Source of the DNA: Escherichia coli
GTDB taxonomy: Bacteria; Pseudomonadota; Gammaproteobacteria; Enterobacterales; Enterobacteriaceae
DNA: 27,104 nt
Assembly (NCBI RefSeq): GCF_003334385.1
Contig: NZ_QOWN01000059.1
Direction: 5' to 3' (one strand)
How positions within the stretch are numbered: position 1 is the first letter of the stretch; every line of letters begins with the position of its first letter. The notes under the pieces were generated by a model that did not search any database, was not told the origin of the DNA, and saw nothing but the letters and a program-made list of their open reading frames with translations. A program made the position numbers and the translations under genes. Of the stretch, positions 19,946 to 25,693 are shown piece after piece.

Positions 19946-20407
19946 TCAATGCAAACACTGCAACTTTACATACTCCTGCAAGTAGTTAACCTGCGCCGTT
20001 ATCTTGTCGATTCCACTTCGGAGACGGTAATAATTGAGTTCAGCATCTGCTGTAAGTCTTGGACTTTCTCCATCGCCCATGCCGCTGGCTCTGGTCGTTG
20101 ACTTTGCACAGGTGGCAGCGACTTGCAGGCGCTTACGCCCAGCAGAAACATCAGCACGGAGACTTTCGATAGTCGCGTTAGCATCAGCAAGCTCCTTTGT
20201 GTATCTGGCGTCAAGTTCTGCTACGTCACGTTGACGCTTCTGCATATCAGAGATGGTCGCCATAGCCGAATCTAATGCCATAGCATTCTCATCACGCTGC
20301 TTTTTGTATTCAATAGCTTTATTGTGGTAATGATTCACTGAACAGATAAAAGAACCAACGACAGAAACGAAGAAAACAGCGATAACCAGCTTATAGCTCA
20401 ACTTCAT
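19946..20407 (-). CDS. rz: Rz-type i-spanin
   Basis: 153-aa ORF with an N-terminal transmembrane helix and coiled coil, closely resembling lambda Rz (NHYHNKAIEYKKQRDENA...MQKRQRDVAELDARYTKELADA); overlaps the endolysin 3' end. Confidence 0.8.
   Translation of the reverse strand: MKLSYKLVIAVFFVSVVGSFICSVNHYHNKAIEYKKQRDENAMALDSAMATISDMQKRQRDVAELDARYTKELADANATIESLRADVSAGRKRLQVAATCAKSTTRASGMGDGESPRLTADAELNYYRLRSGIDKITAQVNYLQEYVKLQCLH
19999..20184 (-). CDS. rz1: Rz1-type o-spanin lipoprotein embedded in rz in the +1 frame
   Basis: Signal peptide with lipobox (MLTRLSKVSVLMFLLGVSAC) and a Pro-rich mature part, fully inside rz. Start chosen at the second Met; the track ORF extends to 20214. Confidence 0.7.
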   Translation of the reverse strand: MLTRLSKVSVLMFLLGVSACKSLPPVQSQRPEPAAWAMEKVQDLQQMLNSIITVSEVESTR

Positions 20408-20867
20408 TTACCACCCCACCAGCCTCTTTAAACCGGGCAATCAGGTCATCGATTTTATGTTCATACTGACCGTAACCCGCACCGGGTAACGACGCCCAGA
20501 TATTGCTGCAACGATCGATAGCCTGACGGATATCACCGCGATCAATCATCGGTAAAGCACCACGCTCTTTAATCTGCTGTAATGCCACTGAGTCCTGGCT
20601 TTTGGGAGAGAAGTCTTTCAGCCCAAGCTGCTTGCGGTAAGCATCCCACCAGCGTGAAAGAAGTTGATAACGGCCTGCAGCTGTTGATTTGAGTTTCGGG
20701 TTTAGCATGACAAGTTTACGAGGGTGATCGGAGTAATCAGTGAACAGTTCGCCACCGACAATAACATCATAACCATGATTTCTCGTTTTCTGCCGTCCGT
20801 TATCCGTTCCTTCTGACCATGCCACCATATCCAGGAAAGCTTTACGCTGGGAATTTAGTACCTGCAT
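20391..20867 (-). CDS. Endolysin, lambda R-type lytic transglycosylase
   Basis: 158-aa ORF nearly collinear with recalled lambda R (NSQRKAFLDMVAWSEGTDNGRQKTRNHGYDVIVGGELFTDYSDHPRKL...). Confidence 0.9.
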   Translation of the reverse strand: MQVLNSQRKAFLDMVAWSEGTDNGRQKTRNHGYDVIVGGELFTDYSDHPRKLVMLNPKLKSTAAGRYQLLSRWWDAYRKQLGLKDFSPKSQDSVALQQIKERGALPMIDRGDIRQAIDRCSNIWASLPGAGYGQYEHKIDDLIARFKEAGGVVNEVEL

Positions 20868-20870
20868 AAA

Positions 20871-21197
20871 TTACTCCTTAGAGCCACCAAACTTGTTACC
20901 GATTACTCTCATTGCAGCCCCACGAATAGCATCGACACCGATCAGCCCCACCCCACCACCAATGGCAACAGATAGTGATTTAGGCCATCCGACATACTCA
21001 AGAGCGGATGCAAAAGTCAGCGTCAGAGCACCACAGAGCAAAATCTCGAGCGTTTTTCGCTTCCAGCCACCACCACCGCCAAAATAGGCAATGCGCAAGC
21101 CAGCCATAACGATCGACATAATTACTGCGCCCAGCGGCGTGTCTCCACGCCACCAGCTCTGGACCAACTCCAGCCAGGTATTTGGGTTATGAGGCAT
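20871..21197 (-). CDS. Holin (putative)
   Basis: 108-aa hydrophobic protein with two to three predicted transmembrane segments, immediately upstream of the endolysin with a 4-nt gap. Confidence 0.6.
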   Translation of the reverse strand: MPHNPNTWLELVQSWWRGDTPLGAVIMSIVMAGLRIAYFGGGGGWKRKTLEILLCGALTLTFASALEYVGWPKSLSVAIGGGVGLIGVDAIRGAAMRVIGNKFGGSKE

Positions 21198-21337
21198 TTG
21201 TAGTTATCTCTCACCTCGCCGATACAAGAGGTGCAAATTGAGGGAGTACCACGAACCGCAAATCAGAAGCGGAAACGTAAAAGAAGCCGAGCCAATGGAT
21301 AAGAGCTAGATAGACCAAGCCCAACGAATACCAAAGC

Positions 21338-21371
21338 CCAGAAACGACAAAACCCGCTCAATGGCGGGTTT
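21338..21371 (-). terminator. Candidate tR'-type intrinsic terminator in the late leader
   Basis: On the minus strand: stem AAACCCGC, loop CAUUGA, stem GCGGGUUU, then UGUCGUUUC; about 70-100 nt downstream of the candidate late promoter and upstream of the holin. Confidence 0.4.
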
Positions 21372-21416
21372 AAGCTGTGTGGCGAAGTAACCACTCTTAA
21401 CATAATACAATACTTT

Positions 21417-21445
21417 TTGCGTACGCGTTAATAATTCTATATTAT
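21417..21445 (+). promoter_or_regulatory. Candidate sigma70 promoter of the ATPase-methyltransferase operon (TTGCGT-N17-TATTAT)
   Basis: Plus-strand hexamers at 21417-21422 and 21440-21445, about 30 nt upstream of the GTG start at 21476. Its -10 overlaps the -10 of the divergent late promoter. Confidence 0.35.
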
Positions 21446-21470
21446 ACAAGAAAAACAAGCTGGAAGACAA
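21441..21470 (-). promoter_or_regulatory. Candidate Q-dependent late promoter (pR'-like): TTGTCT-N18-TATAAT, with a second -10-like TAGAAT just downstream
   Basis: Minus-strand hexamers at 21465-21470 (-35) and 21441-21446 (-10), followed by an intrinsic terminator and then the lysis genes. Confidence 0.35.
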
Positions 21471-21475
21471 TTAAA

Positions 21476-23254
21476 GTGAGTGAAATCAGAAAGTTAAAAG
21501 GGCTAATGAATACAAATGCTATTGAGCCGTTCATTCGCCATATACGGTTTCCGTATTTTAAAAATCTTGAAGAATATAGCACTATACATTTTCACTATCC
21601 TATTACTGCATTAGTTGGTCAAAATGGAACCAATAAAAGCTCAGTATTACGTGCATTATATGGTTCTCCAAATAATTATTCCTTAGGAAATCTTTGGTTT
21701 TCAACTGATCTAGACGAGATTAAAGATGGTGGTCGTTCTAGATTTATTTATGGATACTATGATTCCGCATCTAAAGATGTTGTTGAAGTAATAAAAACAA
21801 GGATTGTAGACAAGGAGGATCCTGATTTATGGGAAACTTCGAGACCTCTAACTAAAGATGGTATGAAAAAAATACCAACAGATATTATTTCGCCAAATCA
21901 GCAAAAATCACGCTGGAAACAGATAGACAAAATTGTCACATATATTGATTTTAGAGCTTCGATCAGTGCATTCGATAAATTCTTTTATCATTCGGACTTT
22001 GATCTTTATCCAAAGAAAAATCACCTGAGAAAAAGAAGCCATCTTCTTAAAGAGATAATAGATAAAGGCCTAACATCATACAAGCCCTTTAAAGGTAAAA
22101 AAGAAAGGTTGTATAAGAATGAATTACTTTCTCAAGAGAAGGTAGAAATCATCAGCGATATACTTGGTAGACCTTACAAAACAATTAGACTTATTGAGCA
22201 TGCCTTATTTACAAACAATAAGGCTTCAACCGTTATTTTAGAGTCTCATAGTCTCAACTACTCCGAGGCTTTTGCAGGAAGTGGGGAGTTTGCAGTAACT
22301 ATTCTCGTAAATCAAATTGTTAACGCGCCAACAGCATCATTAATTCTTTTAGATGAACCCGAAGTCTCACTTCATCCAGCAGCACAGTTTAAATTGATGT
22401 CTTTTCTAAATAAGATTTGCTTAAAAAACAAACATCAAATTGTTATTTCAACACACTCATCATCTATAGTTAGCCAACTACCTAAGGAAGCCATAAAACT
22501 TTTTAATCTTAATTCAAACTCAGGAAAAGTTAGTATAGTTGAAAACGTTAGCCCTGAGGAAGCTTTCTTTACGCTTGGAGACCGACTATCAAAAAAAACT
22601 ATCTTTGTAGAAGATAAACTGGCTAAAAAATTCGTTGAGAAGGCTTTAAAATCAGGAGGTCCTGCCCTAGCCAATACATTTGATGTTATATATTGCCCAG
22701 CTGGTGCAAGCACATTATTAGGTAATATGATTGTCTCATTATTTTTATCAAGAGTTGATAATGCGGTATTTTTATTGGATGGTGATCAGAAGACAAGCCA
22801 TGATTTCATTACATCAGCCTTAATACCAAGCAGTGAAGATAATTCTTTAAATGAAAAAATAAAAAATATTCTTGGGTGTGAAATTAAAATACCAACTGAT
22901 GGGCATGGTGGAACTCCAAATAAACAGCAGAAGATTCAACTTCAGCGTGATTTCATTGATTTTTCATATAATTATGTAGGGTATTTACCTATCATTAATC
23001 CAGAAACTTTTTTGATTGACAATCTTCCGGCTTTTTACTCCGATATGATTAAAGATTTAAACTTATCAAAACTATCACCAAAATCAATAATTGCAGAAAT
23101 ATGTAAAAGAGACATAGAAAATAACGTTATAACTTCGGATGATATTTTCGCAACACAAATCAGGATACTAACCCGAATACCTGAGAATCATGTCGCATTT
23201 TCTGAAACGAGAGAAATGCTGAAATTTTTCCTTGAACATGGTAAGATAAGATAA
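21476..23254 (+). CDS. ABC-type ATPase with C-terminal TOPRIM-like nuclease domain (OLD/PARIS/Gabija-like architecture)
   Basis: 592-aa ORF. Walker A GQNGTNKSS (residues 48-56), Walker B LILLDEPE (289-296), H-loop ISTHS (324-328), then TOPRIM-like FVED (E379) and LLDGDQ (D435, D437). Visibly AT-rich. Start may be the GTG at 21476 or the ATG at 21506. Confidence 0.7.
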   Translation: MSEIRKLKGLMNTNAIEPFIRHIRFPYFKNLEEYSTIHFHYPITALVGQNGTNKSSVLRALYGSPNNYSLGNLWFSTDLDEIKDGGRSRFIYGYYDSASKDVVEVIKTRIVDKEDPDLWETSRPLTKDGMKKIPTDIISPNQQKSRWKQIDKIVTYIDFRASISAFDKFFYHSDFDLYPKKNHLRKRSHLLKEIIDKGLTSYKPFKGKKERLYKNELLSQEKVEIISDILGRPYKTIRLIEHALFTNNKASTVILESHSLNYSEAFAGSGEFAVTILVNQIVNAPTASLILLDEPEVSLHPAAQFKLMSFLNKICLKNKHQIVISTHSSSIVSQLPKEAIKLFNLNSNSGKVSIVENVSPEEAFFTLGDRLSKKTIFVEDKLAKKFVEKALKSGGPALANTFDVIYCPAGASTLLGNMIVSLFLSRVDNAVFLLDGDQKTSHDFITSALIPSSEDNSLNEKIKNILGCEIKIPTDGHGGTPNKQQKIQLQRDFIDFSYNYVGYLPIINPETFLIDNLPAFYSDMIKDLNLSKLSPKSIIAEICKRDIENNVITSDDIFATQIRILTRIPENHVAFSETREMLKFFLEHGKIR

Positions 23255-23280
23255 ATTTTAGATTATTATAGAGACAGATC

Positions 23281-24315
23281 ATGAAGAAAAAAATCAAAGT
23301 TTTTGACTTCTTTTCAGGATGCGGGGGAACAAGCAAAGGCCTTAAAGAGGCTGGGTGCGAAATTTTCTTCGGTCTCGATTATGATTATGACTCTGGTCAA
23401 ACCTTTCAGGCAAATAATCCTGATGCTATATTTTTTAATGAGGATATACGCTCCGTTAAGTTAAATGATTTATTTCAGCTTGTAAAAAAAGCGAAGCAAG
23501 ACTCACATGTTTTGTTTTGTGGTTGTGCTCCATGTCAACCGTTCTCAAGGCAAAATAAAAATAAAAGCAAAGAAGATCCTCGAAGAGGATTATTAAACGA
23601 ATTTGGTCGTTTTATCGAGTACTATTGTCCTGATTATGTACTGATAGAAAATGTTCCAGGATTACAAAAAGTTGATATTAACGATGGACCATTGCATGAT
23701 TTTATAACTCTTCTGAAAAAGAAAGATTATAATTTAGCTTATGGTGTGATTCCCGCTTTATGGTACGGAGTGCCTCAAACCAGAGAGCGTTTTGTTCTTA
23801 TGGCCTCACTTCATTCCCCAATCCATCTACCAGAGCGCACGCATAATGGCGAAGATATCCCATTTGCGACGGTAAGAGATTGGATCGGAAATATACCACC
23901 AATTGAGGCAGGTGAATCACATCCTACATTACGAGATCATGTTAGTGCAAAACTCTCTGCTTTAAATCTTAAAAGAATTAAAGCAACGCCAGAGGGTAAA
24001 GGTCGAGAGTTTTGGCCTAAAGAGTTGTTACTTGAATGTCATAAAAACCATACAGGTCACAGCGATGTATATGGCCGATTAGCATGGGATAAACCTGCTA
24101 GTGGATTAACTACAAGATGCATTAGTTACTCTAACGGAAGATTTGGCCATCCTGAGCAACACCGGGCAATTTCTGTTCGCGAGGCTGCACTGCTACAAAC
24201 ATTTCCATTGGATTATATATTCATCGGTTCAATGCTTTCTAAAGCTAAACAAATTGGTAATGCAGTCCCACCTAAAATGGCGGAGTCTATAGGGCATGTT
24301 TTTATGAATATTTAG
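23281..24315 (+). CDS. DNA cytosine-5 methyltransferase
   Basis: 344-aa ORF with C5-methyltransferase motifs in order: FDFFSGCGG (motif I), GCAPCQPFS (catalytic Cys85), LIENVPG, QTRERF and QIGNAVPP. Starts 26 nt after the ATPase gene. Confidence 0.9.
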   Translation: MKKKIKVFDFFSGCGGTSKGLKEAGCEIFFGLDYDYDSGQTFQANNPDAIFFNEDIRSVKLNDLFQLVKKAKQDSHVLFCGCAPCQPFSRQNKNKSKEDPRRGLLNEFGRFIEYYCPDYVLIENVPGLQKVDINDGPLHDFITLLKKKDYNLAYGVIPALWYGVPQTRERFVLMASLHSPIHLPERTHNGEDIPFATVRDWIGNIPPIEAGESHPTLRDHVSAKLSALNLKRIKATPEGKGREFWPKELLLECHKNHTGHSDVYGRLAWDKPASGLTTRCISYSNGRFGHPEQHRAISVREAALLQTFPLDYIFIGSMLSKAKQIGNAVPPKMAESIGHVFMNI

Positions 24316-24335
24316 CTGGAGCGTAAGCTCCAGCT
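24314..24335. terminator. Hairpin between the convergent methyltransferase and Q genes (possible bidirectional terminator)
   Basis: 9-bp stem AGCTGGAGC / GCTCCAGCT with loop GTAA, immediately after the methyltransferase stop and before the Q stop. No strong U-tract on either strand. Confidence 0.3.
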
Positions 24336-24338
24336 TAC

Positions 24339-24695
24339 CTATAACATTGACATTACTCCCTCAACAAATCCCAAGGCGGATTGCAAATCCTTCCGGATAG
24401 TCCCGTCCGAACATTTCCGCTTCTTTGCAATTGTGCGGAGTGAAATACCTATAACAAAGTGAACAATGAGCAGCTCAAACTCATCTGGCTTATACTTTCG
24501 TAACCGAGCCACACAACTGTCTACCATAATACCTTCGTCATCATCACACTGAATCCGGGACTTTTTGCCATGAGGTAAAAGCCCCTTAAAGCCAGCGGCT
24601 ACCTGTTGCCAATCCACACCACTGTTTTCTGCCGCAGCCCATGCCCCCCAGCGGTCCAAAACTTCATACATATCACGCATCAACTTTCTCCACAA
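24339..24695 (-). CDS. Late gene antiterminator Q (QuuD/phage 82 type)
   Basis: 118-aa ORF resembling recalled E. coli QuuD (VLDRWGAWAA...AAGFKGLL...SRIQCDDDEGIMVDSCVARL...CSDGTIRKDL). Confidence 0.7.
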   Translation of the reverse strand: MWRKLMRDMYEVLDRWGAWAAAENSGVDWQQVAAGFKGLLPHGKKSRIQCDDDEGIMVDSCVARLRKYKPDEFELLIVHFVIGISLRTIAKKRKCSDGTIRKDLQSALGFVEGVMSML

Positions 24696-24697
24696 AA

Positions 24698-25693
24698 TCA
24701 GGCCAGCACGCCTATTGCCAGCGCACGATCGATAAAACGAAATATCAGCTCCAACTGGGAGCCATACTTCTCTTCAAATGCCACGGTATCCGCATGTAGT
24801 TCGTCGTGATGCTTTCTGCACAAAGGCAACACAAAGAGGTCATGCGCTTTTGTACCCATTCCCCCCTGACCGTGGCCTATCAGGTGGTGGGGATCATCAG
24901 CAGGCTTTCCACAACATGCACACGGCTGTGTCTTAACCCAGCGCGTGTACTTTTCATTAACCCAGCGGCGACGTTTTGGGCGTAACATAAAAGACTCCGG
25001 CGACTCCGGATCCACTTTCAGCGCCAGCACCTTTTTCGCCTTATCCTGGATGATGCTGGTGGCAGGAACCGAAGGCACAAGGTCACTTTCCCGGGTGACA
25101 GACGGCACAACAGGCTTCGGTAATCTCAGTGCCTTACGGGCTGCACTTTCCGGTAAGGCATCCGCCAGGTCATTACGAATCAGCCACCAGCACAGTTCCG
25201 GCATTGTCACAACGTGACTGTCATCAAAACCGAGATCCCGACGCACAACAGACAACACCCAGCGGGCACAGTTATCCGTTGCCATTGATTCCAGCCGTTC
25301 CGTGAACTGATCGCGCAGCTGGTTATCGCAGTGCCAGCACAGACGGATTGCGCCCGGAGCGTGTCGCATTGTGGTCATGTTCTCGCTGTGCCAGTCGGAA
25401 TGAGGCCACTGGCAGCCTTTTTCACGAAGTAACCAGCTTTCAAGACATTCCACGCCACCAGCACGACGGATCACTGCCTCATTGCGGAACACGCCCCGAA
25501 CGGCAGGATCATCCGCCAGCGGTTGTGATGCCGCGGGAACGGCACCACTGGCGAAAGATGAATAACGCTCCGGCTCAGGCTCCAGCAGGACACGCCCCTG
25601 CATAAACAGGGGCATCAGCTCTGAACCTGGCCTGAACAATACGATCCCCATACGCGGGGCAATTTCAGGGGTCAGTAGTGCTCTCACGGTCAC
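24698..25693 (-). CDS. DUF968 (YdfU-like) prophage protein
   Basis: 331-aa ORF with a C-terminal Cys/His cluster (CACCGKPADDPHHLIGHGQGGMGTKAHDLFVLPLCRKHHDELH) typical of the YdfU family; directly upstream of Q. Confidence 0.6.
   Translation of the reverse strand: MTVRALLTPEIAPRMGIVLFRPGSELMPLFMQGRVLLEPEPERYSSFASGAVPAASQPLADDPAVRGVFRNEAVIRRAGGVECLESWLLREKGCQWPHSDWHSENMTTMRHAPGAIRLCWHCDNQLRDQFTERLESMATDNCARWVLSVVRRDLGFDDSHVVTMPELCWWLIRNDLADALPESAARKALRLPKPVVPSVTRESDLVPSVPATSIIQDKAKKVLALKVDPESPESFMLRPKRRRWVNEKYTRWVKTQPCACCGKPADDPHHLIGHGQGGMGTKAHDLFVLPLCRKHHDELHADTVAFEEKYGSQLELIFRFIDRALAIGVLA

Follow-up and report, generated by a model that had tools for sequence, protein, structure and literature searches.

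A probable late control region lies 2.9 kb from its Q gene, beyond an antisense cassette, in a lambdoid prophage of Escherichia coli

Results

Gene order and cargo of the late region

The stretch of Escherichia coli DNA analysed here (27,104 nucleotides, designated the window) is a lambdoid prophage of the SfII, SfIV, and DLP12 kind, in which the late genes occupy the minus strand (Table 1). In the late direction, Q is preceded by the genes encoding RusA, a KilA-N protein, and a DUF968 protein, and the lysis genes, which begin with the holin gene (start at 21197), are followed by terminase, head, and contractile-tail genes on the same strand. The Q gene of the window encodes a PF06530 Q protein with a helix-turn-helix similar to region 4 of ECF sigma factors. 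Comparison with the solved Q21 structures 6P18 and 6JNX returned a weak phmmer match (E value of 0.0017, about 80 residues).

Two genes of opposite orientation, forming a cassette of low GC content, are located between Q and the holin gene. PADLOC matched the product of the first gene best with HEC-04 and ATPase-Toprim_I-B, and more weakly with PtuA, GajA, and AriA; the methyltransferase encoded by the second gene is of the Dcm type. Together, the nuclease and the methyltransferase resemble a restriction or defence pair linked to methylation. In other strains, the same site is occupied by a version of this cassette with about 79% DNA identity (locus L009). The stop codons of Q and of the methyltransferase gene are convergent, and the 23 nt between them are filled by a perfect 9-bp hairpin, AGCTGGAGC-TTAC-GCTCCAGCT (24314–24335), which has no U-tract on either side and may terminate transcription in both directions or stabilise RNA. 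On the other side of the cassette, 278 bp separate it from the holin gene.

The interval between Q and the holin gene is a hotspot for cargo genes. A 4-kb query comprising Q, the cassette, and the start of the holin gene matched 3837 of 5426 complete E. coli genomes, and the same flanks were found around many different cargoes in complete E. coli genomes and phage records. Strains WP4-S18-ESBL-08 and EC6563 have a locus identical to that of the window. These cargoes include OLD-type nuclease and methylase genes, a nucleoid-associated protein with an unknown partner, a TIR and caspase pair, porins (lc of PA-2 and nmpC of DLP12), and several pairs of unknown genes. The presence of antisense genes in this interval is not new, PA-2 lc and DLP12 nmpC being earlier examples. 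About 25 different cassettes, all of low GC content (0.30–0.42) and nearly all antisense to the late genes, were present among the sampled loci (L001 to L130). The hotspot extends from the last few codons of Q to about position −47 of pR' (21432–24366 in the window). The C-terminal 8 to 12 residues of Q change with the cassette, which places the left junction inside the end of the Q gene.

Table 1. Features of the region between Q and the lysis genes.
Feature	Coordinates	Strand	Remarks
Third lysis-gene ORF	19946-20407	-	Rz position, after holin and lysozyme
Holin gene, lambda family	20871..21197	-	TIGR01594, E 1.8e-35; first late gene past the terminator
Intrinsic terminator, tR' equivalent	21371-21341	-	8-bp stem with 5 G-C pairs, 6-nt loop, then UUUUGUCGUUUC; scan and RNA fold
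Small leader hairpin GUGGU-UACUUC-GCCAC	21379..21394	-	RNA fold; within the predicted short transcript
Candidate sigma-dependent pause element AAGAGT+GG	21398-21391	-	Invariant in all loci; predicted pause near 21384/21383
Predicted pR' start, A 21395 +/- 1	21394..21396	-	From -10 spacing alone
pR' -10 TATTAT	21407-21402	-	TAnnnT in 28/29 unique promoter variants
Candidate pR' -35 TTAACG, 18-nt spacer	21431-21426	-	First part of the conserved block; weak, predicted
Palindrome GCGTACGC and A5 tract, candidate Q-binding element	21426-21419 and 21414-21418		Centre about -27.5 of pR'
Cassette promoter -35 TTGCGT	21417-21422	+	Inside palindrome/A-tract; invariant in type-A loci
Cassette promoter -10 TATTAT	21440-21445	+	Exactly 17 bp from TTGCGT
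Originally proposed pause element TAGAAT	21439-21434	-	Cassette-specific, not conserved
Originally proposed late promoter TTGTCT / 18-nt spacer / TATAAT	21470-21465 / 21446-21441	-	In cassette-specific DNA
Antisense two-gene cassette, low GC (about 0.35)	21476..24315	+	NCBIfam and PADLOC matches; RefSeq names in identical loci
OLD/ABC-type ATPase-nuclease gene	21476-23254	+	Cassette gene 1; GTG start at 21476
DNA cytosine-5 methyltransferase gene	23281-24315	+	Cassette gene 2
Q antiterminator gene, 118 aa, Q21/Q933W family	24339..24695	-	Pfam PF06530, E 2e-43, residues 6-118

A conserved block upstream of the holin gene

Nine loci in which different cassettes separate Q from the holin gene were aligned. 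On the holin side, their homology does not start before about position 21431; the sequence common to the nine loci reads cTAACGCGTACGCAAAAAnTATTGTAtnnTGTTAAGAGTGGTTACTTCGCCACACAGCTTAAACCCGCC..GAGCGGGTTTTGTCGTTTC. The block was further surveyed in 124 leader-carrying loci obtained from viral contigs and other fetched records. In three cassette-free relatives (L045, L012, and L038), the stop codon of Q is found 39 to 46 nt upstream of the leader anchor, directly before the block, and Q is immediately upstream of pR'. The block thus holds the position in which lambda and phage 21 keep pR'. The original prediction that the late promoter is located in the gap between the cassette and the holin gene, rather than beside Q, therefore agrees with the conservation of the block, and so does the statement that the cassette parts Q from this promoter by 2.9 kb. 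Q antiterminators can work in trans. Adjacency of Q and pR' is accordingly a matter of positional habit and not a requirement of the mechanism.

At the sequence level, a sigma-70 pR' is recognizable upstream of the late genes by a −10 signature and a weak candidate −35 hexamer located 18 nt upstream. The −10 position was occupied by nAnnnT in all 29 unique promoter variants, through 13 different hexamers. Retention of TAnnnT in spite of variation of the middle bases is what a functional −10 should show. The hexamer present 5 bp further upstream was TAnnnT in only 11 of the 29 variants. For this reason, an alternative −10, TATTGT (21412–21407), which would place a pause element after the start as in phage 21, was set aside (11/29 versus 28/29 for 21407–21402); it is a minor possibility in loci with the palindrome of the window (type A, see below). 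The −35 hexamer matches the consensus at 4 of 6 positions in the window and at 3 of 6 in most relatives; most type-A relatives have CTAACG. As a whole, TTAACG-18-TATTAT scored 9/12 in the consensus scan.

Between the −10 and the terminator, the loci of all palindrome types have almost the same sequence. This stretch includes the invariant sequence AAGAGT-GG-TTACTTCG (21398–21383), which is similar to AACGAT-GGG-TTAATTCG, the inducer of the +16/+17 pause in lambda, and AAGAGT-GG is a candidate sigma-dependent pause element. This candidate begins 9 bp past the −10 and overlaps the predicted start, as compared with distances of 12 bp in lambda and 14 bp in phage 21. The leader sequence AAGAGTGGTTACTTCGC resembles positions +1 to +18 of lambda pR' (AACGATGGGTTAATTCGC), with modest significance (local alignment, P of about 0.03), and its similarity to the initial transcribed region of phage 21 was not significant (P of 0.74).

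The small hairpin of the leader is nearly invariant in sequence; the C to U change of PA-2 and DLP12 retains a G-U pair. This segment, AGTGGTTACTTCGTCACACAG, was read as a CRP site in the PA-2 record of 1986 (J02580; 1730–1750 of locus L003). We did not retain this reading: as a CRP site, the segment has a poor left half, and its sequence does not vary between phages that have different genes beside it, which points to a part of the late leader. No Rfam family matched at its gathering threshold anywhere in the window. Under relaxed conditions, the Pseudomonas sRNA P9 matched positions 21349–21438 of the minus strand (20.1 bits versus a gathering threshold of 43, E value of about 0.02–0.04); the match was driven mostly by the terminator stem (AAACCCGCC...GGCGGGUUUU) and was judged not meaningful. 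It does raise the question of whether P9 is itself the terminated late-leader RNA of a phage.

An intrinsic terminator is predicted between pR' and the first late gene. The hairpin, AAACCCGC-CATTGA-GCGGGTTT (21371–21350), followed by TGTCGTTTC on the minus strand, was the best of the 9 sites found in the region, a number above the chance expectation (3.4 ± 2.1). It folds as predicted, and it was conserved in all related loci examined, including Stx phages with different downstream genes. These observations support the original description of this hairpin as a terminator of the tR' type. No compensatory changes were detected in the stems of the terminator or of the leader hairpin among related loci; the stems are invariant, and covariation is therefore not usable for these two structures. 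In the PM4-type loci (L008 and H45 to H50), the same module of Q, cassette, promoter, and leader is joined to DNA of the Stx-phage type at about 21349–21378, with a small ORF and then a DNA methylase past the junction. A switch within the leader or terminator implies recombination at the late leader. The PM4-type loci inherit Q, the cassette, and the block together.

A palindrome that varies with the type of Q

The spacer of the conserved promoter harbors a palindrome, whose centre is located exactly 22 nt upstream of TTAAGAG in all 124 leader-carrying loci and which is usually followed by the A5 tract. Six types of palindromes were found: GCGTACGC (type A, present in the window), GCGGTCCGC (type B), TTTACAATCGTAAA, TTTACGTACGTAAA (type D, present in PA-2 and DLP12), GGAATTCC, and TGTTATAACA. 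Each type pairs with one type of Q helix-turn-helix, based on the analysis of 51 unique Q proteins and about 25 cassettes. The Q types diverge mostly in their C-terminal helix-turn-helix segment. For example, types C and F have different palindromes, and their Q proteins are 76% identical in the N-terminal part and 52% identical in the helix-turn-helix part. Since the type of palindrome tracks the type of helix-turn-helix, the palindrome GCGTACGC is likely to be the Q-binding element of the window. Its position is the same as that of the annotated QBE of phage 21. The combination of a variable palindrome and helix-turn-helix with a nearly invariant sequence between the −10 and the terminator is as expected if Q binds to the palindrome and the leader serves the conserved part of Q, which contacts the polymerase. 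The putative site is dyad-symmetric, whereas that of Q21 consists of directly repeated 8-bp subsites, and the mode of binding would thus differ.

The promoter of the cassette

The plus-strand TATTAT had been proposed to be the −10 of the cassette promoter, and the comparison of cassettes supports this assignment. A cassette-specific TAnnnT was present exactly 17 bp after TTGCGT in 15 of 18 distinct type-A junctions and was one base off in the remaining three. With a background of 0.033 per position for TAnnnT, the binomial probability of 15 in 18 is about 4 × 10–20. In the window, the predicted start of the cassette transcript (about 21452, plus strand) is located 24 nt before the GTG codon. 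A cassette −10 at this fixed offset was not found in type-B loci, indicating that the shared-site design of the promoter is specific to the Q type of the window and is not universal.

The late and cassette promoters are interleaved: each has its −35 inside the spacer of its partner. With predicted starts at about 21395 and 21452, about 57 bp apart, simultaneous occupancy of the two promoters is unlikely. The divergent promoters of the original prediction do overlap physically, and the elements that overlap are the −35 of the cassette promoter and the Q site and spacer of the late promoter, not two −10s. Any TAnnnT on one strand generates nAnnnT on the other strand, shifted by one base, so that the overlap of two opposed −10s is not independent evidence. 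The minus-strand TATAAT (21446–21441) is accounted for as the mirror image of the −10 TATTAT of the cassette. Opposed −10s one base apart are present in the cassette of the window, and the minus-strand half of this arrangement is not conserved in the 17 other junctions. Binding of a protein to the palindrome would occlude the −35 of the cassette promoter. Cassette and late expression may be inversely coupled, through elements that differ from those proposed initially.

Alternative readings of the region

Originally, the late promoter was identified with TTGTCT-N18-TATAAT (21470–21441) and TAGAAT (21439–21434) with the pause engaged by Q. All of these motifs were found where they had been reported. 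The promoter scores 10/12, above the 9/12 of the conserved promoter, and has a −10-like hexamer directly after it and a terminator downstream. However, it is one of three sites reaching 10/12 in a scan of positions 20800–25000, and this region contains as many promoter-like sites, this one included, as expected by chance (10 observed versus 11.8 ± 4.0 in shuffled sequences). The proposed −35, −10, and TAGAAT are all located upstream of about position 21431, where the DNA changes with each cassette, and they occur only in loci harboring the same cassette (the window and the PM4 type). Seventeen other type-A junctions, which carry near-identical Q proteins, score 1 to 8 out of 12 at the same offset, and the cassette-free relatives have the coding sequence of Q or its stop codon at this position. 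DNA that is swapped with every cassette cannot hold a cognate Q site. Likewise, TAGAAT is lost when another cassette occupies the gap, and it would span positions −5 to +1 of the proposed promoter, outside the transcribed region. We therefore regard this promoter and its pause element as a very unlikely late control region. An incidental activity of TTGTCT-N18-TATAAT is less improbable, although we also consider it unlikely: the site could be real and incidental, as the antisense half of a bidirectional promoter centred on the TATTAT of the cassette, with starts about 18 bp apart (about 21452 on the plus strand and 21434 on the minus strand). A second short transcript would then run over pR' to the terminator, with no role for Q. 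Bidirectional promoters that derive from the symmetry of the −10 have reportedly been described as a class. The symmetry of TAnnnT automatically provides nAnnnT on the opposite strand, and the mirror image is in this case a perfect TATAAT with a 4/6 match to the −35 at 18 bp; against this, the arrangement is not conserved in other cassettes and the match is at the chance level. Location of the late promoter at the 3' end of Q or just past it, as in lambda and phage 21 where it directly follows Q, would imply that Q-modified polymerase crosses the whole cassette in antisense and would reduce the block to a leader and a terminator. A promoter-like sequence, TAGAAA-18-TATAAT, does exist on that side (24241–24212, minus strand, 10/12), antisense within the terminal part of the methyltransferase gene (3' end), in cassette-specific coding DNA, and is at the chance level for AT-rich DNA. 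Furthermore, only 23 nt, occupied by a hairpin, lie between the two stop codons, the block itself directly follows Q in cassette-free relatives, and the block has its own −10 signature and a palindrome specific to the Q type. This location is extremely improbable.

The palindrome could have a function other than Q binding, as the operator of another regulator or as back-to-back divergent −35s, its pairing with Q reflecting only linkage. In types C and D, it reads TTTACG on both strands, a 4/6 match to the −35 consensus, but the cores of types A and B (GCGTACGC and GCGGTCCGC) are not −35-like on the late strand. Absence of dyad symmetry in the solved Q21 site, a direct repeat, also speaks for a different function. 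Exchange of cassettes by recombination in both flanks would keep pairs of Q and palindrome together, and the pairing could partly be linkage for this reason. Against this reading, divergence between types is concentrated in the helix-turn-helix of Q and in the palindrome, next to a nearly invariant sequence between the −10 and the terminator, and the position matches the QBE of both lambda and phage 21. A palindrome unrelated to Q binding appears decidedly unlikely on these grounds.

Discussion

We propose that the conserved late promoter, the palindrome in its spacer, and the terminator form the true late control region of the gap between the cassette and the holin gene, and we put the probability of this reading at roughly 0.68. 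This promoter lies about 40 bases downstream of the one originally proposed. Insertion of the cassette would have moved this region 2.9 kb away from its Q gene. The late promoter would consist of the weak −35 TTAACG, the palindrome-bearing spacer, and the −10 TATTAT, with a start near 21395. In the absence of Q, the polymerase would synthesize an RNA of about 55 nt and halt at the terminator (21371–21341). In its presence, Q would bind to the palindrome GCGTACGC and be loaded onto polymerase paused in the invariant leader, possibly at the candidate element AAGAGT-GG. The Q-loaded polymerase would then read through into the holin, lysozyme, and structural genes. The cassette would be transcribed in the opposite direction from its own promoter, whose −35 TTGCGT is located within the putative Q site, and TTGTCT, TATAAT, and TAGAAT would belong to the cassette promoter and to the DNA of its 5' leader. 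The pR'/tR' reading of the original prediction is thus retained with other elements than those first named, namely the conserved block and the conserved terminator.

A more speculative proposal extends to the short-Q branch of the Q21 family as a whole, in which the Q-binding element might be a dyad site in the pR' spacer. In type-A phages, this site might double as the −35 of the promoter for any antisense defence or moron cassette located between Q and pR', such that a single binding event, when late transcription begins, would load the antiterminator for the lysis and virion genes and shut off the defence cassette. We regard this as a tentative idea, on the doubtful side. If it is true, a hard-wired switch between lysogeny and lysis would be common to dozens of different cassettes. 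If binding of Q represses the cassette promoter, expression of defence functions would be inversely tied to that of the late genes, as originally suggested, by way of other elements.

The logic of pR' and tR' is textbook knowledge, but few phages have a known Q site. In the literature searched, we found no description of the promoter of the block, of its Q site, or of the shared-site promoter of the cassette, and a full-text search with the leader and palindrome sequences returned nothing relevant. What appears to be new is a late region of the Q21 family with a putative dyad Q site, exchangeable antisense cargo located between this site and Q, and a cargo promoter superimposed on the site. 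The analysis provides a testable map of promoter, Q site, pause candidate, and terminator for a very common group of E. coli and Shigella prophages; DLP12 of K-12 and some Stx phages are members of this group. A note of caution is also warranted, since a near-perfect consensus promoter in AT-rich cargo DNA proved to be the wrong candidate.

Among known systems, phage 21 is similar in several respects. Its Q protein belongs to the same family, PF06530, and the Q of the window matches the Q21 structures directly, if weakly. In phage 21, the order of elements is a −35, a QBE in the spacer, a −10, the start, a pause element, and a terminator, and the block follows the same plan, with a putative QBE, a predicted start, and a candidate pause element; in both cases, the terminator lies within about 50–55 nt of the start and late lysis genes are downstream. 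The annotation of phage 21 is experimentally based and cites structural work. The differences are a shorter Q (118 versus 162 residues) with weak sequence similarity, a putative element consisting of an 8- to 14-bp palindrome and an A-tract instead of two tandem 8-bp subsites, a pause candidate that overlaps the predicted start instead of spanning +2 to +7, and the distance of 2.9 kb from Q created by the antisense cassette. The lambda system of pR', qut, 6S RNA, and tR' relies on the same logic, which is predicted here from sequence: a constitutive promoter, a proximal pause, a terminator, and Q-dependent readthrough. In lambda, however, Q belongs to an unrelated family (PF03589) and adjoins pR', and the leader is 194 nt long instead of about 55 nt. 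The PT/PR region of mer is controlled by MerR from a dyad site that is located in the spacer of one promoter and overlaps a divergent promoter. When two divergent promoters share a dyad site, one protein could act in opposite ways on both. The protein considered here is an antiterminator instead of an activator of the MerR type, and its action on the two promoters is putative.

StxS is a prematurely terminated pR' transcript made in lysogens of Stx phages that encode the 144-residue Q933W (PMC7547250). It involves another Q subtype and a 258-nt leader processed to 74 nt, of a sequence unrelated to the block; given the size of Q and of the leader, StxS was not retained as the same element. Further parallels are PA-2 lc and DLP12 nmpC, which occupy the same hotspot in the same orientation and are associated with the same block (type D palindrome TTTACGTACGTAAA) before the lysis genes. 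Both carry a porin gene in place of a defence operon, with several hundred bp between its start and the block. In E. coli K-12 MG1655, DLP12 harbors an intact block between nmpC and essD (L134, 3690–3790; about 577,190–577,290, plus strand), with the type D palindrome, the −10 TATGCT, the leader, and the terminator. The predicted start is at about 577,229, for an RNA of about 50 nt. At this block, the Term-seq supplements of PMC7815308 listed nothing in K-12, and the paper on the DLP12 lysis operon gives no start coordinates. This intact copy could make K-12 a ready test bed.
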